DNA of 64,000 nucleotides from Eremomyces bilateralis CBS 781.70 (GCA_010015585.1 ML975173.1); one strand, 5' to 3'; counted from the stretch's first letter, positions 1 through 57,400 are shown. Made by a program: numbers and translations. The notes: a model not told the origin generated them from the letters alone.

Positions 1-2177
1 TGACCGTCCCGTCGTGCGAGCCCGACGCCAGCGTCTTGCCGTCCGGCGAGAAGGCCACGGCCGAGACCCCGCTCGAATGGCCCTCGAGCGTCTGCAGCAC
101 CGCATTCCATTTCTCTTCGACCTGTAGTAACCTCCGTATCCATCTAGGTATGCAATTTGCGAATTGCTTTCTTATTATGCTCATTGTCGGTGCGAATGCG
201 AGGGCACTGCAGTACGTCTGAAGGGGAGCTAACCCGATAGCGTATCGATTGTAGACCACGAACCGCTTCGCCTCATAGATGATATCTGAGAGGCTAGGAC
301 AGTCACTTATCTAGTCGAAGTCTTAGCGAGATTATATACTATGCCGGAGGTATAACTAACGGAAGCAAGCGACTCTAAAGACGCGATGGTATGAATTCCT
401 TCCGATACCTGCCCCATCCATCCGAGAGTTTCGAGCCAGTGGAGGAAATGCTCTTGTAGGAAACGGTGTACTTGGTCGCCATCTTGAAGCTTGGCCTCGC
501 TTCTCTGGAGATGCTGGATCCAATATAGACATGCATACCGAACCTCAGGAGGGAGATGCTGCGCTGTAAGACTAGTTTCAATATCAGTCACTAATGCTCC
601 TGGTCGGTCCACACTAAGAATATCTTGCTTAAGAGCACCAGACATAAGCTTAATGCAGCTTGTAGCGAGTGATTTATGTGCTTGCTTCTCGTCAATCCCA
701 ATTTTCAAATCTGTACATCTCTTTGGGTCAAGGAGGAAGTCGCGGAACGATGGATGATGTAAACGCAGCGGCTGAGTCGAATTCTTTGGAACGTCCAGAA
801 TCGCATGAAGATCGTTCAGTGTTTGGTCTAGTTGTTGTAGCGTACTGTCGAGCGTAGTATCAAGCGTAGCGTGGAGTAGTTTCCCCAATGAGTCGGTGGA
901 TAGAGGAGAATAGAGGACAGCAATGGTCCCCATGGTTGTTCCAAGTCGCTCGCGCCATTTCTTGCTTTCTCGCCCCCTGTATTTTCGGATAGACTTCTTG
1001 AGAATTGTGATGTAGATGTTGTCCAGGTGCTGTTGTGGAGCTACTACAGGATCGCCATTCTTGTTATCTGTCGCGGAACTATCTGAAGACGACCCGTCTC
1101 CCGAGTCATCCGCAGAGTCAGGCTTGAGGATTATAGATATTCGATCTGCAGCAAAGTATTCGCCCTCCTCGATAAAGCGACATGCAGTTGCCGCCCAGAT
1201 GAATAGCTCATTTGCACTGTCAACGAGTTGACCAATGATATGCTCGTCAGGCCAACCAGCAGGGAGACAGTACCTACGAGCAATGTCTTCAAGCTTGTGC
1301 CGTAAGAAAATGCGGATATCATGATCGACAATCGACGACGATATTTCGTGGAGTATAAAATCCCGGTGTACAACATTTGGGATTTGGATGAAGCCGTTTC
1401 GGATCGGAACGTCAGGTCGGCTGGTTAAGAATACTCGAAGCTGGACCGTCTCTAAGGACCGAACCTCCGCTAGCAATTGTAAAATAGTCTGGATGTCGTT
1501 CTCGTCCTCGCACTCATCAAGCGCATCAACGACAAGAATATATCGGGGTTGGCTGCTGCTGCCCGCCAGCTGCGACAATGGATTAAGGACCAGATGGCGC
1601 CATTGTTCACTTAGATCCCGGTTGGCAATGTCGCTCTGGGCGGAAATCGCGTTGCAAATGATTCGTTTCAGATCCGGTACTTTGTTTGCCAGTTGTACTG
1701 CAACGCTTGTAACAAAATTACCGGCATGGCCGACATCTCCGCCGCCTCTTGAGAAGAAGAAACTAGCACCAAGGGTTTCCTTCGCCGGGTTCGCCCAATA
1801 CCTAGACACTGTTCGCGCCACCGTGGACTTGCCCGTGCCAGCCAAACCGCTTAGCCAAAAGATGCTCGGCGAATTTTCTCCCTTTACCCAGTTGTCTATA
1901 TCTTCACGGAGGCCGACGCGGGTATTGTCAAGGCAGGTCGGGTCATGTCGTCGCTGGTGTGCGTAGAACGGTGCGTCCTTCGCGGTAGGGAGGGAGCCGA
2001 GTATATCGTTCAAGTCTAGACTTGCCATTTAGCTTCCTGATGCTTCGAGCCCACAGCCAGTTAAGTACACTCACCTTTACTGGCCCCGACGTTCACAGAT
2101 CCGTGGAATTCATTATTACCAGCGATAACCAGCGAACCGTCCTTGGCGGTCGCATCGCTGATACGTTGCTGAGCCAT
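1..2177 (-). CDS. Fungal NLR: N-terminal amyloid-like motif + NACHT + WD40 repeats (NWD2/HET-E-like); runs off the left edge
   Basis: Walker A GLAGTGKS, Walker B ILVVDALDEC, FLTSRP and HHPSFRDFL motifs. Exons 2177-2075, 2015-361 and 310-<1. Introns 2074-2016 (GTGAGT..CTAG) and 360-311 (GTTAGT..GCTAAG..CTAG) splice in frame. The last exon reads APLQTYCSALAFAP...LQTLEGHSSGVSAVAFSPDGKTLASGSHDGTV, a WD40 repeat. Confidence 0.93.
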
Positions 2178-3321
2178 GAGCTTGGAGTAACGATGCTAAA
2201 TCTTTCGCCCTGCTAGTAGTTATTGATCTCTCGTTGCGAAATGCGAATACTGCGGCGTACGTGCGCAAGGAAACATTCTGGAGTGAGTCCATATCTACAT
2301 AGTATACCTACCCCCAGGTCACATGTGAGGTTCATTCTCAGCTGGCGAATGCATTCCGCCAGCCTCGCCAATGAACGAGCTTGCCTTGCCGCTGTCGGCT
2401 GCTGGAGAAATGCATCGGTTGCAGCCTGTAGAGTGCAGACCAAGTTGGATGCCAAGATCATTTCGTGAATACGCCGACACGGAGAAGGAGAAGGGTGGCT
2501 AGTGGCTACCCACTTTTTCGGTGTAGATCCCTTTATCTGACCAATGGAACTGAGCAAAGAGAAGGCTCTGGCGGGCTGGCCCCAATTGTTGAATCTGTAG
2601 ATTCTGTACGGAGGTGTTACCGACTTACCATACTGGCGGACGGGCTGTACCGCAGCTAGCCCAATCCATGTGGATCAGTCATTCCTCTCAGCCTTGAGCC
2701 TTGCAAAAAATAAAAGTCGGTCCCTACTCCCTGCAAGTTCCATAGCCAAATCATCTCATCCACACCGAGATACTTACTCGAGAGCCGAGTTATTCTCGCA
2801 TTGGCATAGTATATGATTCCATGGTTGATGGCAGCAAAGGTCTGGCCATTGTTGCGGACGTTTTGCTGATACTGCCTTGCTGGACGCAGTAAGGCGTAGT
2901 AGGTAAGGCATAACTGAAGCTGCTCTGGTGGGGCAAGGGTCCGCTGGACATTGGGTGCTAGTGCTGCCATTGCTACCATTGCTACTATTGCTTTATTAAT
3001 TATAACCAATTATTGAAAAAGTCTGGGACGCTCAGCAATACAATCTCATATTCGCCTTGATAAGTACTCTCGAGGTACTGTACTGCGTGGTAATTATATC
3101 AACGAACAAATTCAGGGTTTGGCAAATGGCATCTTCAAGTGGTCACGCCAATATGCGCGATGATTTGTCACAACACACGAATTGCGCCTCACTGAACCGC
3201 AGTCTTTTACTGCCCCGCATATATGGTTCATTGTTTCCTTTGTGTTTTAACCACTACCTCCTCTCCTTTCCCTTGGTTGAACCCATTAACTAGTCGATTC
3301 CTTTCCAGTGTTCGTTTAGTC

Positions 3322-4275
3322 ATGCCGGAACCTCTTAGCATCACTGCGGCTGTTGTAGGCATTACAGCCACAGCTCTCCAGAGCGTTCAATTTCTCGCCA
3401 AGACCATCGACAACATTAAAGACGCCCCAAGAACCGTCAAATTCATCAGCGCCGACCTTCGCGCAGTTGAGAGTGTGTTGCAGGATCTGGAAGTACAAGC
3501 CGATTCACCGCAACCCATTCAGAGTAAGCAAATCGGGCCTGCTGTCGAGAACTGTGACAGAGCATGCAAAGCATTTCAGTTGCAAGTCGAGCATTGGATG
3601 AACCGTTCCAAAGACGACAAGATGTTTTGGGTCTCTCGGTGGAGGGTTGGACTATTTGGGCAGGAGAGGATCAAGACATTCAAAGGGCAGCTTAGCGACT
3701 GCAAAAGCACTCTTAGCGTCGCACTGGCTACGGCAACTCTGTTTGTTTACCGACAGCCTTTCAGCCTGCCAATAGCTGACTGATTGAGTAGCTTAGCTGT
3801 AACTAGCCAAAAGGACCTGGCGAAAGAGCAGAGAGACAGCATGCTAAGGGTAAACGAAGCAGACCTTGCGCAAGAGCTTATTAGTGCAGGCAATGAAGGG
3901 GTGGAAATTGAGCGCAATCTGCAACAACTCATAGTTAGAGGAAGCACCGAGCCGGACGAGGAATCCGAGCAGAGCAAACAGGAGCTTCTCCAAGAGCTTC
4001 GGAGACAGCAAGCCGGCAACAATACCTTCAGAGAGATGTGTGAGGAAGCCCTTTCCAAAACAGTGTATGAGCGTACAGGGCAGAAGATCAAAGGTGTCAA
4101 GGCAACAAACAATAGTTCAGCTGTGACGGGATTCATCAACACTTCTGGGGAAGAGTCAAAGATCGATCAGGATATCTCTGATGTTACTGCTGATGGCCAC
4201 AGCGTGGTCATTGCTGGGGTCGTGAAGGGCTTCGATTTCAAGGACTTGCGTCTAGGTAAGCCTGGGGGTTCTTAA
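3322..4275 (+). CDS. HeLo-like (HELL/SesA-type) domain protein with a C-terminal two-repeat HET-s-related amyloid motif; putative cell-death effector, about 300 aa
   Basis: N-terminus MPEPLSITAAVVGITATALQSVQFLAKTIDNIKDAP is typical of HeLo-like domains. Intron 3741-3791 (GTTTGT..GCTGAC..TAG) joins the two ORFs in frame. C-terminal pseudo-repeats QKIKGVKATNNSSAVTG and QDISDVTADGHSVVIAG. Confidence 0.85.
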
Positions 4276-5623
4276 GGAGATGTCGGCAGAGGATATGGGG
4301 TTAGCAATTTTGACTTACTGTATCTAGTGGACCGGCGTAACGCAGACATCGACGTGGACTATGTCGATCTAGGATTCCCCTTTTCCATCATGATCATCCT
4401 CTCTTCAAAGTTCGAACAAATGCTATTAAGACTTATGACGCATTCGCAGAGTCTGTCCAGTGTTGATGTCTTTCTGTTTGAGTTCAACCATTCAAAGTGC
4501 CGCCGACAATAATAATGCTTCGAGCACGACTTCCAAGTCTCCTATCGCCAGATTGAATCGTGAACTCGGAACTAGGAAATCCCGAACGTCTCAAACTGTC
4601 AATTTCCCCGTTTCACTCATCGCGCATTCTTCGAAACATTTCTTTTGAGTTGTGGCCCACCGCAACGTTTCAGTACGCATTTCAGGCCACTTCGCGTGAT
4701 TAACATGCCAGCAACCGATGACTTCAGGAGATAGGGATGATCAGATGATGAAGCGATGTCAATCCGAGGTGAAGAGTTCGCAGTTGCAATGATGGCGCGA
4801 GTTGGCACAGTCCATATCTATCCGATCATCACGTTCGAGTTGATCATGAGAATTGGACACGCGACGTCTACTCCTGCGGGATAGAAGAGGATGCTCAAAG
4901 CTACCATAGGTACGGTAGGCTGTGTGTCCATGGTCATTCGCGTCCGATGAATGTGACGGGAATGAGGTTTGTTGTGCCAGATCTTCTTAAGTAAATCGAT
5001 GTGTGTTATTAAGGTTGTAATTATAGTCGTAAAGAAGGTTAAATGAATGAATGTAGTTGATACTCGGAAGGTACATATAACTTAATCAAGTCAATTGTAG
5101 TAACGTGGTCACGCATGGCTAATTATTGTGGCTCGGGGTGGGTACCGGATAGAGCTACATTCATAAACCCCCCCGATTGTTCTCTGCCTGTGTGTGCCAC
5201 TCTTTTTTTGCAGGTTCCAGTTTGAATCTGGTTTACGTAGTTCTTTCTTTTTGTTAACAGCTTAATTATGTCTCTAATCCTCTGGTTGGAGTTAATGCGC
5301 CTTATTGAATGCAGGCGGTTTCGTCGCTCCGATTGTGGTAGGTGGACATTAGATCCTTTCCTTCTATTGGCTCACATTTTTTTATAGTCGAGTCTTTAGG
5401 TCTGTTTCTCTACACCACTTAGTCCATGGTGGTTCCCTTCGAGTCCATCGTACAATCTGTCATATTGACTACATAACACAAGCTATCGAAGAGCGTCATC
5501 ACTCGTAACCAACAAGTCTGCAAGGAGATATAAGAAAAGCGTTCCCAATTGCTCCATCGAATGCCAGCCGATCAAAAGACACGGCGTAACCTTCCAAAGT
5601 CGCTTATCCAAGAACGCGATCCA

Positions 5624-7817
5624 TCACCATCCCCAGTTCTCCTCACTCCACTCCCCCGGCGCTGCATTCCCCATCCCGACGTCGCAGAACAAGTCGACAT
5701 CGCAAAACACCCCCGACGGCCCCATATTGACCCCGAGACTGGACCCCATCCCCTCCATGTCCTGCCCGATCATCTTCAGATCCTCTGCTAACTTCAATTC
5801 CTCCTCCCGCGACTCCAGGTCCTGCGCTCCGCCCATCATCTGCGAGTCCATGGGGCTGGTCGGCGGTGTTTCTCCCGCGCTACTGACGCGACTTCGCGCG
5901 AGGCCGAAGTGGATTTTCTCGTCCGCGTCGAAGCTTTGGAGGCTTTTGGTCGGGGAGCCCAGTTGTGCGGGGCTGATAGTACCCAGCGGAGGCGACGCGG
6001 GCGGGGTTTTCGGATCCAATCCATGCGGCAGGCTGTTCCATTTAACGATACCGGGGAGTTCGACGTCTGCCTGGACGAGCGAGGGCGGGAGGGGAAATTC
6101 CTCCGTTAAACTTGCTGGCCCATCGCGATTGGCGCCGCCGGTGGCCGATGGGGACGAGGTGAACGATTCGGATTCGATTTCGTCGATGCTGAACTTGAGG
6201 TCGCTGCGAGGGTCAGTAGGCTGAACTAAGGGGAACCGTCCGATCCACGTACCTGAATGACACATCCTCCTGAGTGTCACCACCCAAAGTGGTGAACTGC
6301 GTGGCATCGAAGGGAGGCGGGCTGGTGGCCGGGCTAATTGGATATGAACCCTCCGATGCCCCCGACAAGGACGATGCATACGGGCCGCTGGAGTGGATCT
6401 CCAGGCCCGTTTCCTCCTCCTTATCCATGATCCTCGCTCGGAGCGCTTTCTCCACCCGCTGCTCCAACTCGGGTCTCTTCTTCTTCGGTCGCCCTCTCCT
6501 CGCCGTCTTCCGCACCGCATTTGGAAACGCTCCCGAGCACATGCCGCGCTGTCGATGCCGCGTCAACGCATCCTGGCGCTGAAACGCGGTCCCGCAGAGA
6601 CACTTGTGCGGCTTGTCGCCGAAATGGATCTTGGCGTGGCGCTTGAGGTCGTGCTGGCGGACGAAGCACTTGTTGCAGTCGTTGCAGCGGAACTGCCGGT
6701 CGCCGAGATGGGTCTGCACATGGGCTTTGATGTTTTCCTTGCGCCCGAAGGTCTTGCGGCACTGCGGGAACAGGCAGGTCCATTTGTGGCTGACGGGGTC
6801 TTGCTCGCCGATAAATGCTTGCACTTCGGCGGAGGAGATCCCCGTGTCTTCGATGGATGCGTTGAGGTACATGCCGGCAACCTGCACTCCGGCGGAAGGA
6901 GATCCAGGGTGAAATTGGGGTGACGAGAGGAGTGCATCAAGATCATCGCCTGCTTGGGACGAAGGCATGTACGGTGTGGTAGAGGGTGAGAATGAGATTG
7001 GTGGTGCGGGAGTGACGGGGAATCCGCCAAACGTGGCTGTTGATCGTAGTTGGGGCGAAACAGTCGGCGATCGCTCTGGAGAGAAAGCATCGGACGAATA
7101 ATACGACGACTCATTCTCTCGGTCGCTCTCCGGATTGTCCACGTTCATGGAGAAGACCTGCTCCATCCCTGGTGGGTCGAGATTGATCTCCGTCACGTCA
7201 CCAAAACTTGATGGCATGGGCGCCACATCTAAGTTGTCACCGTGTGGCGCCGTGTTCGTTTGTTTCTGCGGTGTTGCCATGGGCGTCGGGAGAATATTGA
7301 CTTGGATGATCCCCAGATCGCTGAACTCGTTGATGCGCTCACGGAATTCGCGGAGCCGCTCCTCCGGCGATTTCAGTGGCGATCGGGGGGTGGCTGGTTG
7401 TGAGTGCGTCGTCAACGACGCATTGTACTGAGTTGGGTCCGGGGAATAGGCCGCCCGCGGTCCTAGGGATTGATGGTGCTGGTTCTGTTGCCCCAGCTGA
7501 GGCATGTTTTGCAACTGCGCTACCTGCGTCGGATGTTGTTGAGGGTCCTGTCCTGTGTGGGGGTTAGCTATACTTACCGTCGACTCCAGCTCCTGGGTCG
7601 GCGTCGTGATCATCGAAGACAACGGCGGCGACCTCGTCCGCTTGTAGGGGTTCCGGGGGATGTCGAGACTCATCCCTCGTCGGTGACCCTGGTTGGTTTG
7701 ACGCTGGACGATGGCTGGAAGGGGTCGAACGTTGGCCGACTCAAGTTGAGGCGTGGAGTTTTGCCGACGGTGGGTCGTGCGGCGACGCTCAATGCTTGAG
7801 TTTGGCGTGGACAACAT
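5624..7817 (-). CDS. ACE2: C2H2 zinc-finger transcription factor, Swi5/Ace2 family
   Basis: Fingers WTCLFPQCRKTFGRKENIKAHVQTH / FRCNDCNKCFVRQHDLKRHAKIH / HKCLCGTAFQRQDALTRHRQRGMC, followed by RRGRPKKKRP. Intron 6252-6204 (GTACGT..CTGAC..CAG). Many S/T-P sites. Confidence 0.85.
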
Positions 7818-8532
7818 CGTGTGAGATGCAAGTCGAGTCCGGAATGGGTTTTCAAAGATACGGTTCCTGTTGGTTCCTGGGGGGTTAGTAGTATCTCCTT
7901 GGGTCCGAGGCTATCACCGATATTAGCGGCTATCCTATTTCAATGATTCGACTGTCCGTACCTCACGCAGTGCAGGCAAACTCCCGCGGGGCGGCGGATT
8001 TCCTTAAAGACCGCTCAGTACAATAGATTTTGTCGATCACAACCAGTGAATGTAAGGTGTTGGGCTGATGCCCGGGAGAAGTGCGAAAACTCGGTTTGAT
8101 AGACGAAGTCGAGACCTGATGCGGTGTGTAAAGGTCGACTTCTCTGTTGAATGTAGGTTTGGGTGGATTATCGAGAGTAGCAGATGTTTTTTGGATTCAG
8201 AAAGATACTGAACAATAGAGAGATGGTGATAAATAGGATCGAATGTCTTTGAGCTGGACTTCTCATGGGGGCGTCATCAACTGGCGTCAAAAGTTGGTCA
8301 ACAGCCCGTTGCGGCGGGCAACCCAAACGCTTGGATCGGCGATCAGCCTTACTGCCCAATCACCTGACATCACGTGGGAAATGCAGGGGCCTTCCCCAAC
8401 GACCAATAATAATTAATTTGCACTTTGACACCTTGGTGCCTTATCGCTTGCCCACAACTCGAATTTCCGCGCCACTTCGCATCTCTCCCTCTCAACTTTC
8501 ACATTATCGTGACTGAAGATACAAAGTCCTAG

Positions 8533-9170
<638 letters not shown>

Positions 9171-9818
9171 ACGTCTCGCTGCACACCAGTCAGAGTGATC
9201 TGAAAATGCCGTCGAAAGGCAACACTCGAGAGAAGATTGAAGTGTATGAATAGTCTCTAGATAAGAACCAAAACAGACCATTCTCGACATCATATGAGCT
9301 CCTTGGGCCATCTGTCCAAGCCTCCAAGGCCTTAAAGTGCGTGTAGCGTAGGGTAGAATATCTTCGACGCCCGTGATATCAGCCTATTTCGCACTGGGAA
9401 TATCAAATAGAATCCGGTAGTTGCAGCACATGCAGAAGGGAGACGGTCATAACTGTAAAAAATCCCATGTCTTCAAGCGATCATCGCCCATACTCAGTCC
9501 AATATCTACGTTCATTCCAGCCAATTGGCGATCAGATGTTCAGACGACTTGACAGGGGGCATCAACCTCAACTTACAACAATGAAATAAGTAAGACCAAG
9601 AAGTCAACAGGACATCGCAGCTCAAATAACATCCACATCTTTCCGAGAAATCGGTTGCTTTCCAGTCGCTTTATAGATACGTGATCTACAGCTTCCCCAA
9701 TGCAGTTCTCTGTGGAGGCCTATGCCTAGGCGCTCCCGGACTCGACCCTACTTCGAACGAGACCACCGTTCCCTTTCGACAACGCGCATAGATTCGTCGA
9801 CCCTTCACACTATCCAGC

Positions 9819-12800
9819 ATGTCGGACTTCTCCATGTTCCATGCCCTCGGGCAGCATTCCATAAACCCAAACGACCCAAAAGTCGAGCCCGAAGCGCCCC
9901 AGTTCCGACCGCCAATTGCACCAGCACCCTCGGGGTATCATCAATCAGGTTCATATCAGAGCGCTCCTCCGCAACAGCAACAATATGACCCTTCTGTCGC
10001 CCACACACAGCCGGGAACGCAAGCTGGGAACCCGCCATACCAGGAGCAGGGATACTTCGCGCCACCAGGATCAACGCCAGGAGCCGCACCACCCGCCGGA
10101 ATGGAGGGATTGACACAACAGATGAGCCACGTCGGTTTAGGGACCGAAGGCGCGGCTCCGGCAAGGACACATAAAAAGCGAGATCGGCATGCCTACCACA
10201 ATATCGAGACGCCGGGAGGCAGCTCGCAAGCGTTCAATGGGATGCCCCAAGGGCAGGTTGCGCCCTCTCAATATCTTAACCAACAGATCACTCCTGCGAT
10301 GAACCAATTCCCTGCCGCTGCGAACCCGATATTCACCCCTCAAGACCAAGCGACGGCACCGCAGCATGCCGCGCGGAGCAATACCCCTCTCCAAGGCAGT
10401 GCCGTCACATCCGCGCAGGGACGAGTCGATCCGGAGCAGATCCCAAGCGTCCCTCGAGCCCGGGACTTTGCAACCCAATACTATCTGGACCATGCGTATG
10501 CGACTGTGGAGCGACATTTACCACCTCCTGCGGCGGTCCCGTACATTGCCTTCGATCAAGGCAATGCCTCGCCGAAATTCACCCGATTGACGCTCAATTG
10601 CATCCCCTCGACACAAGAAGCGCTTGCGGCTACCAGCCTTCCTCTCGGCCTCATAGTGCAACCATTGGCGCGGTTGCAAGATGGAGAGCAACCCATACCG
10701 GTGTTGGATTTCGGCGACATGGGCCCTCCCCGCTGTCGACGATGTCGAGCTTACATCAATCCTTTCATGACCTTCCTTTCAGGAGGGAGCAAGTTCGTGT
10801 GCAACATGTGTACATTCCCGAATGACGTTCCGCCAGAATATTTCTCGCCGACCGACCCCTCCGGTGTACGGGTCGATCGACCGCAACGGCCGGAGCTAAT
10901 GCTGGGAACGGTCGAGTTTATGGTTCCGAAGGAATACTGGGGGAAGGAGCCGGTGCCATTACGATGGCTGTTTTTGATCGATGTGTGTGAAGAGTCGGTG
11001 AACAAGGGGTTCGTGGATGCTTTCTGCGAGGGAATCATGAGCGCCCTATACGGCCCATTTGACTCGGACAATGACAATGAGGAGGCTGGACGGCTGCCAC
11101 CGGGGTCACAAATTGGCATCGTCACGTTCGACAAGGAGATTCATTTCTATAATTTGAGCGCGGGGTTGGAAAAGGCGCAAATGATGGTCATGACCGATAT
11201 TGAGGACCCGTTCGTTCCGTTTAGTGAAGGCATGTTCGTCGATCCCGAGGAGTCGCGGACCGTCATCACCGCATTGCTTACGCAGTTGCCGAACATGTTC
11301 TCCGGGCTCAAGAACCCCGAACCGGCGCTGCTCTCGACACTCAATGCCGCACTGGAAGCGTTATCTACGACTGGAGGGAAGATTGTTTGCTCAATAGGCG
11401 AGCTGCCAACATGGGGACCAGGACGGCTCTTTTTCCGCGATGATACCAAGATGCACGGGACCGATGCAGAGAAGAAGCTGCTCACCACCGAGCATCCTCT
11501 GTGGACGAAAGCGGCCACGAAAATGGTGGAACATGGCATCGGAGTGGATTTCTTCATGGCGGCTCCCAGTGGCGGCTTTCTTGATATCGCGACTTTAGGT
11601 AAGTCTTGGAGGCTTTGGGCTTTGGCCTTTTTTAACGCATCGTAGGTCTCGTCTCGTCGAAATCCGGAGGTGAAATCTACTACTATCCCAACTTCCATGC
11701 CCCTCGCGATTCCCTTCGATTGGCACGGGAGATCAAACATACCGTGACACGGGAAACCGGATACCAAGCCCTCATGAAAGTTCGCTGTTCGAACGGCTTG
11801 CAAGTATCCGCGTACCATGGCAATTTCACCCACCATACGTTCGGAGCGGATCTAGAGTTCGGCGCCATCGACTCGGATAAGGCGCTCGCCGTCATGTTCA
11901 GCTACGACGGCAAGCTGGACCCGAAACTCGATGCGCATTTCCAAAGCGCGTTGCTTTATACGACGGCCAGCGGCCAGCGACGGGTACGATGCAGCAACAT
12001 TGTCGCGAGCGTGTCAGAGGGGTCGATCGAGGCGATGAAGCTCGTCGATCAAGAAGCCGTCGTGGACGTGATCGCCAAGGAGGCCGCCTCACGAGTACCC
12101 GAGAAGTCGCTCAAGGACGTTCGAAGCGCGTTGAACGAGAAGACCGTCGATATCCTGGCGAGCTACCGAAAGCTATCCTCGGGATCCCATCCACCCGGCC
12201 AATTGATCCTGCCCGAACTGATGAAAGAGTTCAGCATGTACATGCTCGGCCTGATCAAGTCTCGCGCTCTGAAAGGCGGACGCGAACCCACCGATCGTCG
12301 CGTTCACGATCTGAAATTGCTGAAGCAGATGGGCGCCATGGAGATGTCCCTGTACCTGTACCCCCGCGTCATCTCCCTCCACGACCTCGACGAGAAAGAC
12401 GGCTTCCCCAACGAAAACGGCCACCTCCGCATGCCCGCCACCGTACGCGCGAGCTTCTCCCGCGTCGAAGAGGGCGGCGTCTACATCGTCGACAATGGCC
12501 AAATTTGCCTCCTCTGGCTGCACGCGCAGGTATCCCCGAACCTCCTCGAAGACCTGTTCGGACCGGGAAATACCACACTCAAATCGCTGGACGCGTTCCT
12601 TGCTGCCCTGCCGGTCCTGGATACCCACCTCAACGCGCAGGTGCGCAACATCCTGCAGTACCTGGAGACGACGCGCGGGTCCAAGGCGTTGACGCTGCAG
12701 CTCGCGCGACAGGGGCTGGACGGCGCGGAATACGAGTACGCGCGGCTGCTGTACGAGGACCGGAACAACGAGGCGCAGAACTATGTGGACTGGCTGGTTC

Positions 12801-12969
12801 ACCTGCATCGACAGATCACCATGGAAGTAAGTGGACATCGAAATCGCAAGTGTTGAACTCTGACTGACGATGATAGCTTTCCGGCCAGCGGAAGAAAGAA
12901 GAGTCGACGAGCGATCCGTTGGCGGCGATAGGCACGGGATTTTCGGGCTTTCGGCCGTACTGGGGTTGA
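9819..12969 (+). CDS. SEC24: COPII cargo adaptor, Sec24 family (Sec24C/D-Sfb3/Lst1-like)
   Basis: P/Q-rich N-terminus, zinc finger PPRCRRCRAYINPF..CNMC, trunk, helical and gelsolin-like regions. Introns 11599-11645 and 12827-12876; ends GFRPYWG*. Confidence 0.93.
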
Positions 12970-13379: not shown

Positions 13380-16092
13380 TTATGCACTAGCCGTGACACC
13401 GGACCGCTGGGGCTGGTGTTGCGAGTTGGGTTTTAAGGTATACTTCGCAAACGCCCGCGCCAACGCGCGCTTGCAGCTGACTTTCTGCGAGTTGACGAAG
13501 CTGTCGACGGCGACGGCGATGGCGCGGTCCATGTCGTGCGAGTTGCAGTACTCCGACAGCCGCATCTTGCAGAACGCTTCGCAGGTTCGCATGATCGCTT
13601 CCAAATGCCGGATCTATCGAGTTTACTTAGCACGATATAATTGAAGGAAAATGACTGAGACTTACGGTGATGGGATATGCTCCTGTCGCCAGGGACTCGC
13701 GTCGCATGTCAGCGAACAGTCGGGCGATCTTGTCCCGGTCGATCTGGTACAACTTCGGCCGGCACCTTTCCCGGGCGTAGAGGATGTATTTCCGCAACAG
13801 TTCCTGCGGTATCTGTCCTTCGGTGTGCGCGGGGGGGGATTCCACGTCCATGCCGTCGGGGTTCGTCATGGAGGCATGTGCGCGTCCATGGCTGTTCACC
13901 ACGAAATTCGCCAGTCGCTCGTCCTCCTCGGGCTCGACGGTGTCCCGCACCACGCAGAGGATATCGAAACGACTCAGGATGGGCTCTGTCAGCTCGACGT
14001 TCTGGCTGAAAGGAATGGTGCTGTTGTAGCGACCTCCGATTGGATTGGCGGCAGCGACGATTGCGCACCGCGCTTGCAGGGTCGTGACGATGCCAGCTTT
14101 GCTGATGGAGATGGTCTGCTGCTCCATCGCCTCGTGGATACTGGTCCGATCTTGGTCGTTCATCTTGTCGAACTCGTCGATCAGGCAGGTGCCCTTGTCC
14201 GCTAGAACCAAGGCGCCACCCTCGAGCGTCCATTCGGAGGTCAGGGGATCGCGTCGTACCGAAGCCGTCAAACCCACTGCGGAGGCTCCTTGGCCCGTAG
14301 CGAAGACGGCTCGATGTGCGGTCTTCTCGACATATTTCAGCACCTGCGACTTCGCGGTCCCCGGATCGCCCAAGAGAAGCACGTTGATGTCACCTCGAAT
14401 GATATGTTTTCCCTGGGCTTCCTTGCTGACCCCACCAAACAGACTGAGAGCCACGGCGGTCTTGATGTCCGTGTGCCCGTAGATGCTGGGTGCAATGGAA
14501 TTGATGAGCTTGTCGATGATATTCGGGTCTTTGGACAAGGCGCGAATTTGCCGCTCATCTTCTTCCGTCAATCGGAATCCTGCGAGCTGGTCGTGCGACT
14601 TCACGACGTGATTGGCTTCCAAAATCGTTGCGAAGACAGGGAACCCGTTTTTGTTGTTCAGCGAGGCATCGTAGTTGTTCCGATAGGTGCCGGTGACCTC
14701 GATTTCCTCTCCAGGTTTGGCACTATCAATTAAGTCCCAGAGGAGGATGATCTCGCGGTGTCGAGGCAGCCGACCGGCCGGGACAGTCCCAGGAGACTCC
14801 TGGAGAGTCAGTTTCTGATAGTTCCGATACACGGTCTTCTCCGAGTTCAGAGTGAAGGGCCCTCTCTTTTGGCAGTATTGACAAAAGGAGATCTTCACTT
14901 CGATATTGGATTCTTGCGGGAAGGGGCCTAACACCGCACCGCAGTTGACACAGTCGAACTTGATGTATTTCAGCTGTGGGAACACTCCACTGCGACGGGT
15001 CACCACGCCGCTGACACGGACTAGGCAGTTTAGGTGCGTTTGACGCAGTTGACGAAGGGTATATCGCACCGGCAAGTCCGTGATTCGAACGTGAATTTCC
15101 GTGTGAATCCGCTCGTAGTCGGGATAATGCAGAAGCGTGACGTCCATGGCCACCTGATCGAAGATCTTCAGGATTTCAGCCGGGGTGTTGGCAAGGAAAT
15201 ATGCAAGAGTCGCCTTGGATTCCGCCAAGTGGTCGAAAGAGACCTCCAGGGACTCGGCGTTGACTTCACCGAGTGTCCGAATGCGGGTGCCGTATACTGA
15301 GCTCCCGGTTTCGTCGGTGTATTCGGTCAAGAACGACTTGAACTCTCGGGCAATCGTGCGGTGTACGGCAGGTTGAGCCACCCAATCGGTGACGCTTGCA
15401 GCCTTTACGTCTTGAAGAGCCTCGAGGGTCAGCTCTTCATTCATGATATCTTCGCCCATATCCACATCATCTTCGTCTTCGTCATAGCGGTGGCGCCGTC
15501 TTCTAGGTCCCCGAGCCGGGTCAAATATGGCATCGCCTTCCTCATGGTCGAGGAAGCCGGCTGGGATGTTCCGGGAGCGGGCTAGCTCTCTGTCGCGCCG
15601 ATTCAAACGCGCTTCCAGTTGTCGACGGGCGCCGAGGTCCATATCGCCGTAGTCGCCCAGGTCGTCGATATCTTTGGCATTGTACGCTTCGTCGTCTCGA
15701 CGGGTGCGGTAGTCGCGCTCGAAGGTGTCCGCAAACAGATCGATACCCGCCTCATCCTCGGCCATCTCATCCATGTCGTCAATGTCGCCGATGAGATCTT
15801 CATCGTCATCAATCAGATTATCATCGTCATCGTCGGCCGGGAGCATTGGTGGGGATGATGCAGGGGCTACACGGTCAGCTATATCACATCCGAGGGTTCA
15901 AACCACTTACGACTTGACGGTGGAAGTCCCGGAGAAGACATCATATTATCGTCATCCTCGCGGGCCCGTTTCCCTCGAGCGGCCGATGGAGACAGGCCAC
16001 GGTTCGCCGAGGACATGTTTGGCCGTAAAGGGGAGCTTAAACATTGTTAGCTATGGTTTCGAATGACCCTAAAACTTCCTATTATACCTCAT
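13380..16092 (-). CDS. MCM2: DNA replication licensing factor Mcm2
   Basis: Acidic N-terminus starting MSSPLRPNMSSANRG, C4 zinc finger, GDPGTAKSQ Walker A, IDEFDKM Walker B and SRFD arginine finger. Introns near 16087-16037, 15910-15865 and 13665-13615. Confidence 0.97.
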
Positions 16093-22726: not shown

Positions 22727-24720
22727 ATGTCCATAGTCTCAGGTAAGTGCTTCCATCCATTGCTACATATAGGCACTTACACGTCTGCAGAGTCAATCTG
22801 GGCCGCCGCACCCACCACCACTCGAGGCCAGCCCACTCAACTCTCCACCGATTCCAAAGGAGAACGGCTAGCATATGCTGTACGTTTGTTGCGCTCTATT
22901 ATAAGTCACCGGTCGAATAACAACGGAGCAGTCGGGTAAATCGGTATTCGTCAGGAACATCGACAATCCTGGCGTCAGCAAGCAATATACCTCGCACGTT
23001 GCGCAAACGACCGTCGCCCGGTTTGCGCCTTCGGGCTTTTATGTTGCCAGCGGCGATGTGTCCGGCACCGTAAGGGTGTGGGACTGTGTTGGCGAGGGGG
23101 CTACCAAAGGTTGTTTCCGTTCTGCAGCACTGAACCTCCTGTTAACGTCATCCAGGGGAGTATCATATCATCGCCGGCCCGATCAACGACATCGCATGGG
23201 ATGGCGATTCCCAGCGGATTATCGCCGTCGGGAATGGCAAGGAGCGATACGGTCATTGCATCACTGCAGACAGCGGAAACAGCGTGGGCGAGATCTCCGG
23301 CCATTCATCCTCGATCAATTCCGTCTCGATTCGACAACAGCGACCGCTCCGCGCAATGACGGGCAGCGACGATACCAATCTAGTGTTTTATCATGGCGCA
23401 CCGTTCAAGTTCCAGACCAGCTTGCGGAACCAGCACAACAAGTTCGTCTTAGGCTGCGGATTCAGTCCTGACGGTGCCAATATCGTCACCGTCGGCGCAG
23501 ACCGTCGCATATGGCTTTATGACGGCAAGTCCGGCGAATCGAAGACCCAGATCGGAGAGGGGGTCCACACTGGAAGTATTTTTGCTGTTTCGTGGGCGCA
23601 AGACTCCAAGAGGTTGGTTACCGCTAGCGCCGATCAAACCATCCGAATATGGGACGTCGAAGCAGGAAAAGCGGTCCAAACCTGGCGAATGGGCGAGGAA
23701 GGCATTCCGAACGTGCCCGACCAGCAGGTCGGAGTCGCTTGGCCGCATGGGCGCAGTGACGGTCTGATTATTAGCTGTGACTTGGATGGGAACCTCAACT
23801 ACCTCGTGGAAGGTAATCCCAAGCCGTCGAAGGTGGTGACGGGCCACCAGAAGAACATCACCTCATCGGTCCTCAGCGACCAAACCTTCTACACCGGAAG
23901 TTTCGACGGTCGCGTGCGTGCATGGGACATCGCGACAGGCCTGGCGGAGAAGATCGACGGCAATGGACCGAGTAACTATATTGCCGGGATGTCGGCGGTA
24001 CCGCTAGACGCATCTAAGGAGCCGGGATCGATCTACGTCGCTAGCTGGGACGACACCCTTCGTTCCATATCCGCCAAAACATTCACCGGCAGCACGTCGT
24101 CTCTCGGATCGCAACCCAAAGCACTAAGCGTCACCATCGCCGCGCCATCAGGGCCGATCGTCCTCGTCGCCACCTCCGATTCCCTGGATCTCTACTCTTC
24201 CGGCCAGAAGATCGCCTCGCATTCCGTCCCGTTCACCCCCACCGCCCTCGCCGCCCACGCCTCCACCATCGCCATCGGCGCGGACGACAAGTCCCTTCGA
24301 CTCTACACTCTCGCGTCGACGGACCTGACCCCCATCTCCGCCGAACCGCGGAAGCCCACCGCCCCCATCTCCACCCTCTCGTTCTCTCCCTCCGGATCCC
24401 TCCTTGCCGCGGGGACGACGGGCGGGAAGATCATGGTGTATGACACGAGCAACTGGTCGGTGAAGACGGACCGGTGGAGCGCGCATACCGCGCGGATCAC
24501 GTCGATTGCTTGGAATTCGGATAGTAGCTGTGCTGTGAGCGGGAGTCTCGATACTAATGTCATGGTCTGGAGTTTGCAGGACCCGGGGAAGAGGATCAAG
24601 GCGTTGAATGCGCATAAGGATGGGGTCAATGGGGTGGCGTGGGTTGAGGGGACGAGCAAGGTCCTTAGTACGGGCGGCGATGCTACGGTGAAGGCTTGGA
24701 CTGTGGATGGGGTTTCCTGA
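22727..24720 (+). CDS. AIP1: WD40 actin-interacting protein 1
   Basis: [46 protein letters not shown] and WSAHTARI motifs; three short 5' introns (about 22743-22790, 22880-22931, 23110-23155). Confidence 0.93.
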
Positions 24721-53682: not shown

Positions 53683-54470
53683 AGAAAGTGGATGGAGTTT
53701 TGTAGCTCTCAAGATCGGATCAGTGTGGATCGCAGAGCATGGCCAGGGGGTTTAATATGCAAAAATGGTGATAGAGGGGTGGAAATGGAGGAAGAAGTTC
53801 GATACCAGAGATGGGGTGGACAATGTGAAGGGTGGGAGGATGTCGCGGATGAATTGGATGATCAATGGTGGATTCATCTATTGGAGAGGTTGGGCCGTGT
53901 CACGTGAACTGCATGACTGCATCAACTTTGCTGACATAATCACGATATCTATATTGGTGCCTTAATGCCTTAAGCCTTCATGCCGCGACAGCTGAACCGA
54001 CGTAACGCAGTAAAAAAACTCGGCTTCTCTATCGATTGGATTCATTCCGATAGTCGTCAAGATTCAAGATGCGTGAGGCCGAGCAATTCCATACAGTATT
54101 CTGTATTTTCCAGGTGTTTCAATCGTACTAGTTTAAACTTGTCCCCTTTTCCAATACCGGTGCTGTTCTAGGTCTAGCTGTGGAATTCATAGCTCACTCC
54201 AGCTTTGCCCTTGAACCTAACAGGGATGTCTCAATACAACTACTGCTGTAGGTGGACTGTGGAGAGACGTCGAGTTTAAAGTCTAAACAACTGTCCATAA
54301 CCCTACTTTTCTCGCTGTAAATAACCCACGTCCGTCATGATCGATCGCACGTACCATTGGATGTTAATACTACCGTCCTTTTGAATCTACCATCGATTGT
54401 CTACGAACTTCACACCTGAAGGGCTTGTCTGGTCCTTCATCGTTCCAGGCGCGGGTTGAATGATGCCACC

Positions 54471-57400
54471 ATGTCAGCGACGGCGACTCCGGGAATCGCC
54501 TTGCAGCATCTCTCCCTTGCTAATGGGCGAGTCGCAACTCCGAAGATAGACTCTACGACTTCGTCGAGATCGGGTTCGCGTGCTGAAAGGCTAAGAAGGC
54601 CGTCGGTAGGAGCCTCATCAAGAGCATCCGCACAACCGACACGGCTAACAGATTGCCAGACTGCTACCTCATCCTACTCAATACTCACACCATCAGAGAC
54701 AGCCCTACGTCTTCGAACCTCACTTACGCATGGGCTTTCCCCGTCCGAAATCGTCTCTCGCCTCCATGTATATGGCTCGAATGAGCTTCCTCGAGAAGAG
54801 CCGGAGCCACTATGGCTTCGATTCCTCAAGCAATTCAAGGAGACCCTCATATTGCTACTCCTTGGATCTGCCGCCATCAGCTTCTTGATGGGAAACTATG
54901 ATGATGCCATCAGCATAGCCGTCGCAGTTACAATCGTCGTCTCGGTCGGTTTCGTGCAGGAATATCGAAGCGAGAAGAGTCTCGAGGCGTTGAACCAGTT
55001 GGTCCCGCACTTCGCACACGTTATTCGTGCGGATGGCGCGATTCGTCCTGACCGATCAGCGAGAACCACTCCAGGCGTGCCAAAAGGAAGAGAAGGAGAA
55101 GACGATGAAATTCAGGACACTGCCAAATCGCTCGAAGCCGCCGAGGCCACCTCCACCACGCTTACCGGCTCTCAACTCGTGCCAGGCGACCTCGTCCTGT
55201 TCCATACCGGCGATCGGATCCCTGCCGACATTCGCATTACACACAGTGCCGACCTCTCCATCGACGAGTCGAATCTGACCGGAGAAAACGAGCCGGTTTC
55301 GAAATCACCCGCCACTCTTGTAAGCCACGCATCATCTACCGTATCCCGGGAACCTTCGCCAAACGGTACTGCCTCCATATATGCCTCGCCAGCTGCCGGG
55401 ACGGTCGGCGCCGATATTCGCTTAAACGATCAAACGAACATCGCATTCATGGGGACCTTGGTACGGAGTGGGCATGGGTCAGGTATTGTGATCGCCACGG
55501 GCGGGTCGACCGAGTTCGGTGCCATCTCTGCCAGTTTACAGGAGATTGAGTCTCCTCGGACCCCTCTGCAGCTCTCCATGGACCGGCTCGGCAAAGAACT
55601 GAGTTATCTGTCCTTCGCCGTCATCGCCTTCATCATGCTCCTGGGGGTGTGGCGAGGGTGGGAATTTCTTGAGATGTTCACCATCGGCGTGAGCTTGGCC
55701 GTCGCCGCTATTCCAGAAGGCCTTCCCATCATCGTGACGGTCACGCTCGCGCTTGGGGTCCTCCGAATGTCGAAACGCGGGGCCATTGTCCGTCGTTTGC
55801 CCAGCGTCGAGACGCTCGGGAGCGTGAATGTCGTGTGCAGCGATAAGACGGGGACGTTGACCACGAACCATATGACCGTCACCAAAATTTGGCATTTCAC
55901 GCCTGGTGCGACGTCCGAACCGATTTCCATCAGCGCCAAGCAGCAATCCCTCTCCACGTCCGACCTCGACTTTGCCACGCGAACCATCCTTCGCATCGGA
56001 AATATTGTTAATAATGGGCGACTCATGTCCGGATCGTCCAGCACGCCGGCCTCTGCGGCCTCCGCTGCGATCCTGTCGTCTTCTGCAAGTGATCCATCCT
56101 CTGCCAAGAGTCGCTGGGTCGGACAGCCCACCGACGTTGCGCTTTTAGATCTCCTCGACGCGTTCGGGGAGGCAGACGTGCGAGACCGGATCGGCCCACG
56201 TCGGGACGAGACCCCGTTTAGTTCTGAGCGGAAATGGATGGGTTGTGTGATCCACCCTGGCCCCGACAATCCCAACGGCTACGATGTTGCGTATGCGAAA
56301 GGGGCCCTCGAACAAGTCCTCTTACGATGCGATACCTACATCACTACGGACGGAAAGGAAGTGATACTAGATGAAGCAAGGCGAGAGGAAGCGATCAAGG
56401 CAGCCGAGAAGATGGCGCAAGAAGGCCTAAGGGTTTTAGGATTTGCCAGCGGCCCCAAGAAGAGCGGGAAGCTCTCACCTTCTAGTGCTCAAAGACCCAA
56501 CCTAAGCGGGTATTCCACGCCGCAATTATTGCCCGACCCCAGGGATAAGACACAGGCGAGCCATAGCGACGAAGACCTGTATAAGGGTCTCGCTTTTTCC
56601 GGGCTTGTTGGTATGAATGATCCTCCGCGCCCCAACGTTGACCGATCCATTCGGCGACTTCTCGCAGGAGGAGTCCGAGTCATCATGATCACCGGTGATG
56701 CAGAGCATACCGCCGTAGCCATTGCCAAGAAACTGGGCATACCGTTAAACTTCAACTCGGCCATTGGTCCGTCCGTGCTTCGAGGCGACCAACTGGATCA
56801 GATGAGCGAAGAAGAGCTCAGCCAGGCTATCGGCACGACCACGATCTTCGCCCGCACGAGCCCGGAGCACAAGATGAAGATCGTCCGGGCGCTCCAGGCT
56901 CGAGGAGACGTCGTTGCCATGACCGGCGATGGCGTGAATGACGCTCCGGCGCTGAAAAAGGCGGACATCGGCGTGAGCATGGGCCGTCTAGGCACCGACG
57001 TGGCCAAGGAGGCCGCGGACATGATATTGACGGATGACGATTTCTCTACGATCTTGAACGCCATAGAGGAGGGCAAAGGGATCTTCTACAACATTCAAAA
57101 TTTCCTCACATTCCAGCTGAGCACCAGCGCGGCGGCCCTTGGCCTGGTCATGGTTAGCACGGTCGCGGGCTTCAAAAATCCGTTGAACGCCATGCAAATC
57201 CTATGGATAAGTACGTCTCGCTGACGTCTTTGTTGGAGACGTCCACTAACCACGACTGTAGACATCCTAATGGACGGTCCCCCAGCGCAATCTCTCGGCG
57301 TCGAACCCGTAGACCCCGCCGTCATGAAACTCCCCCCCCGCTCCCGACACGCGCGCGTCCTTACCCCCCAACTCCTCCGCCGCGTGATTCAGTCCTCCCT

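Follow-up and report, generated by a model that had tools for sequence, protein, structure and literature searches.

The closest described relatives of the locus analysed here are gene pairs in which a nucleotide-binding oligomerization domain-like receptor (NLR) is encoded next to an executioner protein with which it shares an amyloid motif. In NWD2/HET-S, which belongs to class HRAM1 of the amyloid motifs related to HET-s (HRAM), a NACHT-WD40 NLR with one motif copy (r0) lies beside a pore-forming protein with two (r1 and r2). In FNT1/HELLF, an adjacent r0-bearing NLR gene accompanies an executioner that joins a HELL (HeLo-like) domain to a two-repeat C-terminal HRAM tail. The available text on HELLF of Podospora anserina describes this combination of HeLo-like domain and HRAM5 tail as a demonstrated prion switch (bioRxiv 10.1101/2020.07.06.188508, PMC7889193). 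Here we describe a 64-kb stretch of DNA (hereafter the window) from the ascomycete Eremomyces bilateralis CBS 781.70, in which the genes of a NACHT-WD40 NLR (minus strand) and a HeLo-like effector (plus strand) stand head to head. Judged by homology, motif pattern and predicted fold, this locus is probably an HRAM2-type amyloid-signalling pair in the same catalogued class of systems as NWD2/HET-S and FNT1/HELLF, a reading to which we assign a probability of roughly 0.8.

The window pair shares with NWD2/HET-S a NACHT-WD40 NLR carrying r0 beside an effector carrying r1 and r2, and the tails that follow r2 are alike in kind (KGFDF in the window, KGFWD in HET-s). It differs in having a HeLo-like domain (PF17111) in place of HeLo and Q in place of N at motif position 3, and in lacking a match to the Pfam profile PF11558. 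With FNT1/HELLF it has in common the HELL domain, the two-repeat tail and the adjacent r0-bearing gene; the receptor is NACHT-WD40 in the window, whereas FNT1 is an NB-ARC/TPR receptor. HELLF is moreover proven as a prion switch by experiment, whereas the window pair is a candidate by homology. The hallmarks given for HRAM5 in the accessible part of the HELLF preprint, QxFG at the repeat start and QG(Q/I) at positions 16-18 (bioRxiv 10.1101/2020.07.06.188508), are missing from the window, which has QKIK and QDIS at these repeat starts and AVT and VIA at positions 16-18. PNT1/HELLP of Chaetomium and Podospora also places a HeLo-like executioner under the control of the NLR next to it, by way of an amyloid motif common to both, but this motif is, in the portion of the 2022 survey available, a single pseudo-palindromic, RHIM-related PP motif, NxGxQxGxN (PMC9815663), and not the two-repeat HRAM of the window. 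An nwd2/het-S-type layout with a HeLo-like effector had been proposed in the initial annotation of this DNA, and is now supported by Pfam, by homologues, by linkage in other loci and by a predicted two-rung fold.

The 2015 catalogue of Daskalov, Dyrka and Saupe (PMC4518210) comprises 155 proteins with two HET-s-related repeats, grouped in classes HRAM1 to HRAM5. By its rules, position 19 is G and positions 5, 8, 10, 16 and 18 are hydrophobic, while position 3 tells HRAM1 (N), HRAM2 (Q) and HRAM3 (H) apart. The two pseudo-repeats, of about 21 residues each, lie in the C-terminal 80 residues of a protein of <310 aa that is of the HeLo, HeLo-like or sesA kind, and the inter-repeat loop has 6-18 residues in 154 of the 155 proteins. 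The window effector has this architecture (r1 at 235-255, an 8-residue loop, r2 at 264-284, 300 aa in all), and the NLR of the gene next to it has a single r0 at its very N-terminus. In the order r0/r1/r2, position 3 is Q/Q/Q, position 5 I/I/I, position 8 A/V/V, position 10 A/A/A, position 16 V/A/V, position 18 A/T/A and position 19 G/G/G; the one soft spot is the T that r1 has at position 18. Charges of the two effector repeats are complementary, r1 being basic (K4, K6, K9) and r2 acidic (D2, D4, D7, D11). An aromatic and glycine-bearing tail after r2, comparable to that of the window, has been described for HRAM proteins (PMC4518210).

Direct homologues of the effector are already catalogued. 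Lophium mytilinum 615678 (P0006 in our search) and Cadophora 662565 (P0020) and 474010 (P0026) are each 63-65% identical to the product of effector exon 2, and the HRAM2 pairs of these species and of Aspergillus fumigatus (Afu8g057..) involve the same effector family as the window. In the part of the supplementary table that was available, two rows for A. fumigatus, two for Cadophora, one for Lophium and others list near-identical r1 and r2 together with the r0 of the neighbouring NLR, and Table 1 puts A. fumigatus 2/2 and Cadophora 2/2 under HRAM2 (PMC4518210). To the extent of those rows, the catalogued HRAM2 proteins and the window agree in r1 (TGQKIKGVKATNxSSALAGFI), r2 (IxQDISDVTADxxSxAAAGVI), the 8-residue loop, Q at position 3 and the single r0. 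By sequence, then, the window pair is a further member of the catalogued HRAM2 class and not a new kind of system, a filing made from Q at position 3 and direct homologues in the 2015 table. HRAM2 was the second most numerous class in the 2015 clustering, and a coarser clustering fuses the two groups with Q at position 3, HRAM2 and HRAM5 (PMC4518210).

The initial annotation had raised the possibility of a new HRAM subfamily, distinct from HRAM1-5 and newly joined to a HeLo-like domain. It had correctly noted a departure from HET-s R1/R2 in the Q replacing N and in the HeLo-like domain; these same features are the published HRAM2 signature. HeLo-like proteins were included in the 2015 screen (PMC4518210) and are named as HRAM carriers in the accessible text of Wojciechowski et al. 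2022 (PMC9815663), so their pairing with HRAM is not new. Comparison with the Pfam profile HET-s_218-289 (PF11558), one of the checks suggested for the motif, returned no match at E<=1 for the exon-2 product or the r0 exon, and Pfam otherwise held no meaningful match to either. That absence is expected for motifs outside HRAM1; the profile matched just 38 of the 155 catalogued HRAM proteins (PMC4518210). The blank profile and a window r0 unlike the two commoner types beside homologous effectors (NNQSISGLSA... and YHLAIHNTSAT...) are what could be said for a new subfamily. With Q at position 3 the hallmark of HRAM2, catalogued homologues whose r1 and r2 are near-identical and whose species are filed under HRAM2, 63-65% identity to P0006, P0020 and P0026, and HeLo-like HRAM carriers already known, we consider such a subfamily highly improbable.

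"Little-studied", as the motif had also been called, is a fair description of HRAM2: a literature search found few relevant papers, and the passages it returned contained no experiment on an HRAM2 motif. A 2017 review gives, in the section available, Penicillium roqueforti W6Q0M1/W6PZN6 as an HRAM2 example (PMC5485727). No paper listed in the literature searches mentioned Eremomyces bilateralis, and "Eremomyces" occurs 0 times in the main text of PMC9815663. Class names also vary between sources. The second Podospora motif stands as HRAM4 in Table 1 of PMC4518210, but HELLF is HRAM5 in the parts seen of later papers (PMC5485727 and the HELLF preprint), and the text of PMC4518210 places HRAM5 in two different supergroups.

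Within the window the motif is confined to the pair. The pattern Q-x-I-x4-A-x3-S-x4-G has exactly three sites in the six-frame translation of the 64 kb, and these are r0, r1 and r2; block shuffling (200 rounds) gave a mean of 0.055, with 0/200 reaching three, a comparison that is in part circular, as the pattern itself comes from these sites. Both the placement of the motifs (R0 once at the NLR N-terminus, R1 and R2 at the effector C-terminus) and the strings themselves were found as originally written. Recomputation likewise returned the common pattern and the 11 identities between R0 and R2 over 17 positions, with 5 for R0/R1 and 6 for R1/R2; over 21 positions the window r0 shares 11 residues with its own r2 and 5 with its own r1. 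This is the reverse of what was seen in 7 of 8 metagenome loci, where r0 is nearer r1, and of the trend stated for HRAM2 (PMC4518210). The best score of the window r0 against r2 from 33 metagenome loci was 9, compared with 11/21 against its own. Recent gene conversion between r0 and r2 was considered and ruled out: only 3 of the 11 identical residues use the same codon, nucleotide identity is 29/63, and both shared serines come from different codon families. Because the codons differ, the likeness of r0 and r2 is held at the protein level and does not reflect recent DNA exchange.

AlphaFold2 models were obtained for the full-length effector (45-sequence alignment; mean predicted local distance difference test score, pLDDT, 71.3) and for the tail alone (23 sequences; mean pLDDT 74.2, and 86-91 in the repeats). 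The full-length model shows a helical body over residues 4-235 that includes a helix at 4-30, followed by strands at 237-240 and 249-255 and then again at 266-269 and 278-284. In the tail model, strands 10-15, 18-19 and 24-30 recur at 39-44, 47-48 and 53-59, giving two three-strand rungs with a 29-residue offset. Among 48,161 PDB representatives, only the HELLF amyloid 6eka (Z 4.5, root-mean-square deviation (rmsd) 4.8, 51/53 residues aligned, 26% identity) and the HET-s(218-289) amyloid 2kj3 (Z 4.0, rmsd 6.9, 69 residues aligned) reached Z>=2 with the tail model. Foldseek ranked 6eka, 2lbu and 2rnm as its top three of 350,542 chains (E 1.7-3.5), and a profile of the family compared with PDB sequences gave 6eka as its best match (E 0.1), in register over both repeats and with RTGQK in common. 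Each of these scores is weak by itself, and it is the exclusivity of the match to 6eka and 2kj3 that carries the fold argument. In the AlphaFold check proposed for the effector, the tail is thus predicted to form two equivalent rungs, a fold resembling only the HELLF and HET-s amyloids.

Models of other parts were less discriminating. The full-length model aligned with MLKL (4btf_A) at Z 10.8 (rmsd 2.4, 100 residues aligned, residues 13-137), a value that helical bundles often reach and that unrelated helical proteins equalled here; Foldseek of this model against the PDB gave nothing at E<=1e-3, with generic helical proteins only. Prediction of a complex between the effector tail and NLR(1-34) scored 0.21 against a mark of 0.34, which gives no verdict and is used neither way.

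The shared motif could in principle be no amyloid switch at all but a conserved C-terminal peptide with another role, such as an ordinary binding site. The low structural match scores would allow this, as would the lack of an HRAM2 experiment in the literature passages found. We nevertheless hold it to be improbable. In 11 of 21 related loci the neighbouring NLR has the motif at its very N-terminus, the motif's hydrophobic/polar pattern and glycine arch obey the HET-s rules, and the r1 and r2 charges are complementary. Furthermore, no PDB chains but the two solved HRAM amyloids resemble the predicted tail, and HET-s and HELLF, from two other HRAM classes, act as prion switches in the reports as far as available.

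The HRAM2 reading was further examined in homologous loci. Searching with effector exon 2 returned 45 proteins of 283-332 aa (E<=1e-3, 46-100% identity), all with PF17111; the named ones come from ascomycete fungi, among them Aspergillus, Alternaria, Cadophora and several lichen-formers, and conservation is >=90% over much of the aligned tail, r1 and r2 included. Metagenome contigs, when scanned, yielded 37 effector loci, 21 of them with >=600 nt upstream (L001 and L002 are near-duplicates). A head-to-head NACHT gene was present in 11 of these 21, with 450-540 nt between the end of its large exon and the start of the effector, and an r0-like motif was read in all 11. A head-to-head NLR is likewise found in L034, which has 592 nt upstream, and in Sarcosagium campestre the NLR (P0053) and effector (P0010) bear consecutive locus tags. 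The other 10 loci had no NLR within 550 nt of the effector, with limited power to detect one in L008, L012 and L025, where just 707-1,030 nt lie upstream; in L033 the NLR is 4.8 kb upstream. The start-codon spacer is 307-321 nt in L001, L002, L003, L009, L013, L015 and L020 (six distinct loci), the loci for which the start codons of both genes could be placed, compared with 1,144 nt in the window.

Three r0 types were found beside homologous effectors: NNQSISGLSAxNNSNLLAGQF, YHLAIHNTSATEGGQSFAGIN and GTQLISGAVATNKSQLVAGTV. Co-variation was assessed in nine loci with r0, r1 and r2 (the window and eight others, the duplicate L002 being dropped). Identity of r0 to its own r1 plus r2 averaged 13.56 of 42 positions, against 12.58 for non-cognate combinations, and this was reached in 177 of 10,000 permutations, which ignore the relatedness of the loci.

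Some of these loci show further peculiarities. The NLR of L033 (3-1205, minus strand) is accompanied by a second NACHT-WD40 gene downstream at 8806-11975 (plus strand, same strand as the effector), an arrangement unlike the head-to-head pair. Effector copies in L013, L014, L034 and L035 have in-frame stops at conserved glutamine codons (TG*KIKG and IN*DIS, the asterisk being the stop); in L034 the neighbouring r0 also has an in-frame stop, and L014 and L034 look heavily mutated. These four effectors are decayed copies, possibly as a result of repeat-induced point mutation.

The gene models of the window pair agree with public proteins and with transcript-like contigs. The start codons, at 2177 (minus) for the NLR and 3322 (plus) for the effector, are separated by 1,144 nt, as expected from the divergent NACHT-WD40/HeLo-like pair 1.14 kb apart that had been reported. 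The spliced effector model (300 aa) equals public protein P0001 letter for letter, an entry named by its source as hypothetical protein, Eremomyces bilateralis CBS 781.70. The NLR model (three exons, 689 codons without a stop, the third exon open at the window start) is an exact match to residues 1-689 of public protein P0166 (721 aa). Effector exon 1 matches PF17111 (7.3e-23, 81.5 bits, cutoff 27.2, residues 3-139), now PigL_N and formerly the HeLo-like N-terminal domain in Pfam. The NLR matches NPHP3_N (3.5e-31, 109 bits) and NACHT (3.5e-9, 37.1 bits, cutoff 26.7), its translation displays Walker A (GLAGTGKST) and Walker B (ILVVDALDE), and one WD40 repeat lies inside the window (5.2e-12, 46.2 bits). 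NLR exon 2 has 1,328 longer homologues (E<=1e-3), for the most part NACHT-WD40 proteins. Features of the locus are collected in Table 1.

Table 1. Coordinates of the NLR/effector pair, numbered from the first nucleotide of the window.
Feature	Position	Strand	Remarks
NLR exon 3	1..310	-	end of NACHT-associated region and first WD40 repeat; P0166 residues 587-689; in-frame join after intron 2
NLR intron 2	311..360	-	50 nt, GT..AG; joint 310->361 in 1,009-nt contig of run X1
NLR exon 2	361..2015	-	1,655 nt; NACHT NTPase module
NLR intron 1	2016..2074	-	59 nt, GT..AG; between r0 exon and NACHT exon; in frame
NLR exon 1	2075..2177	-	103 nt; start codon and 34 codons with single r0; P0166 N-terminus
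r0 AQQRISDATAKDGSLVIAGNN	2112..2174	-	21-residue HRAM frame, NLR residues 2-22, directly after M
Divergent intergenic region	2178..3321		1,144 nt
Effector exon 1	3322..3740	+	HeLo-like (HELL) domain; predicted N-terminal hydrophobic helix
Effector intron	3741..3791	+	51 nt, GT..AG; joint 3740->3792 in run X1
Effector exon 2	3792..4275	+	helical linker, prion-forming-type tail, stop codon 4273-4275
r1 TGQKIKGVKATNNSSAVTGFI	4075..4137	+	effector residues 235-255; strands in AlphaFold2 models
r1-r2 loop NTSGEESK	4138..4161	+	8 residues
r2 IDQDISDVTADGHSVVIAGVV	4162..4224	+	effector residues 264-284; strands in AlphaFold2 models
C-terminal tail KGFDFKDLRLGKPGGS	4225..4272	+	aromatic residues and glycines

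Splicing was read from a public run (X1) that is only guessed to be RNA, its intron-less contigs being treated as transcript-like. The run holds 66% of sampled words from window positions 1-4400. All three predicted introns are skipped in its contigs (310->361, 2015->2075 and 3740->3792), and the skipped segments end in GT..AG on the coding strand. A contig of 864 nt joins 1433-2015 directly to 2075-2355, which indicates that the r0 exon is spliced to the NACHT exon and that the NLR 5' untranslated region extends to at least 2355. The proposed joining of exon 2177-2075 to the NACHT exon is thus confirmed by removal of intron 2074..2016, and the NLR product is colinear with homologous N-termini (e.g. 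P0162) across this junction. The effector 5' untranslated region begins at or before 3266, and positions 2500-3234 are uncovered by X1 contigs. An additional effector intron at 4257 (GTAAGC) was rejected. A contig spanning 4074-4400 runs unspliced across this site, which leaves the stop codon at 4273 in place, and P0001 has the same stop.

Several observations weigh against the reading as an HRAM2 signalling pair. R or K is favoured at motif position 15 (PMC4518210), which in r0/r1/r2 is L/S/V. Unlike the catalogued HRAM2 trend, the window r0 is nearer r2 and, although r0 motifs are described as low in D, E and K (PMC4518210), has four charged residues (R, D, K, D); the WD40 array is, moreover, not verifiable in the window. 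Taken as absolute values, the structural scores of the tail are weak (Foldseek E 1.7-3.5, Z 4.0-4.5), and AlphaFold2 may have met HET-s structures in training. To these are added the blank PF11558 search, the lack of HRAM2 experiments in the literature found, the 10 of 21 related loci in which the effector has no close NLR, and a permutation test blind to the kinship of the loci. Finally, P0166 as annotated consists, past its NACHT module, of one WD40 repeat and a second partial copy out of frame, then a stop, and its E. bilateralis paralogues P0046 (1,295 aa) and P0076 (1,519 aa) have 6 and 11 WD cores, respectively, and a conserved C-terminus.

A caveat concerns the receptor's C-terminus. 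Past residue 689, P0166 runs on for 32 Arg-rich residues to a stop ~100 nt left of the window, and 20 of the first 21 of these residues equal an out-of-frame translation of the window's own WD repeat. At the edge of the repeat, X1 contigs contain joints that go back (58->22, 61->22) and loose ends at 22, 61, 62 and 82. Two further E. bilateralis NLR models, P0201 and P0280, carry the label "partial" and end at the first WD repeat or shortly past it. Because these also end where the WD array starts, a broken or collapsed assembly of near-identical WD repeats is as likely as a real frameshift. The module had been called intact; with a public NLR model that stops in a frame-shifted WD repeat after a single repeat, this is not established.

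The receptor is not alone in its genome. An HRAM2-like r0 pattern is present at the start of 8 of 240 listed NLR homologues, and five of the eight are from E. bilateralis (P0166, P0046, P0076, P0201 and P0245; P0280 has a degenerate copy of the motif). Examples of r0 in the other E. bilateralis NLRs are STQHISSVSIDNHSQAAVGTF and NNQHISGLSASDHSQLFAGQA. P0046, P0076, P0201, P0245 and P0280 are on other contigs, unlinked to the effector, and among the 45 exon-2 matches only one effector is from E. bilateralis. Surplus NLR-side motifs in some genomes are mentioned in the accessible part of the 2022 survey (PMC9815663). Since at least five E. bilateralis NLRs have an HRAM2-like r0 and one effector was found, several NLR sensors may feed a single HeLo-like executioner.

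These observations bear on whether the module is complete. The linked NLR might have lost its WD40 sensor through a frame-shifting rearrangement, with the effector now idle or served by unlinked full-length NLRs. This is a serious possibility but, in our estimate, an unlikely one. It would account for a P0166 that ends after one WD40 repeat with a tail matching the out-of-frame repeat at 20/21 residues, for the irregular X1 contigs at the repeat edge (58->22, 61->22; loose ends 22-82), and for at least four other E. bilateralis NLRs with HRAM2-like r0 (P0046, P0076, P0201, P0245) alongside one effector. WD arrays are, however, hard to assemble, and P0201 and P0280 stop likewise, which makes an assembly artefact as likely a cause; nor is there damage to the r0 exon, the NACHT module with Walker A/B, the two introns or the effector, all of which are represented in transcript-like contigs. 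A further and more doubtful idea is that the one executioner is a hub for several receptors, with the linked NLR, in place of a classical receptor's role, relaying, priming or damping the amyloid signal without a sensor of its own. It is prompted by an r0 that copies r2 and not r1, that is charged, and that belongs to a protein annotated without a WD40 sensor array; if true, it would give fungal amyloid signalosomes a level of regulation not so far described for them.

On the preferred reading, that of an HRAM2-type signalling pair, the mechanism would follow that of the described systems. Ligand binding by the WD40 array would cause the NACHT-WD40 receptor to oligomerize, and the oligomer would gather r0 motifs (residues 2-22) into a cross-beta template. 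This template could then convert the unfolded r1-loop-r2 region of the effector (residues 235-284) into a two-rung beta-solenoid, and the conversion would free the conserved N-terminal hydrophobic helix (4-30) for membrane insertion and cell death. By analogy, we infer amyloid formation, templating, toxicity, a ligand and a role in defence or allorecognition. The locus adds one more HRAM2 pair, from a little-studied order, and the spliced contigs of public run X1 back its introns. With a compact r0/r1/r2 set and an r0 that mimics r2, it is also a useful test case for asking which of the repeats is the first to be templated and how barriers to cross-seeding arise between HRAM classes.

Around the two genes, repeats or a mobile element were looked for in the intergenic region (2178..3321) and none was found, and its GC content is unremarkable. 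Minus-strand open reading frames in this region (2213-2674 and 2656-3009) and one after the effector stop (4276-4512) had zero Pfam matches. By Pfam, the remaining window (5600-64000) holds ordinary genes. The neighbours encode a C2H2 zinc-finger protein (6213-7910, minus), a Sec24-like protein (9792-12856, plus) and MCM2 (13627-15897, minus). Further genes encode a UBR-box protein, FKBP, a WD40 protein (23146-24720, plus), fungal rhodopsin-domain and MFS proteins, an endoplasmic reticulum retention receptor, HsbA, a mitochondrial carrier, Rad21/Rec8 and a P-type ATPase (54420-57224, plus).

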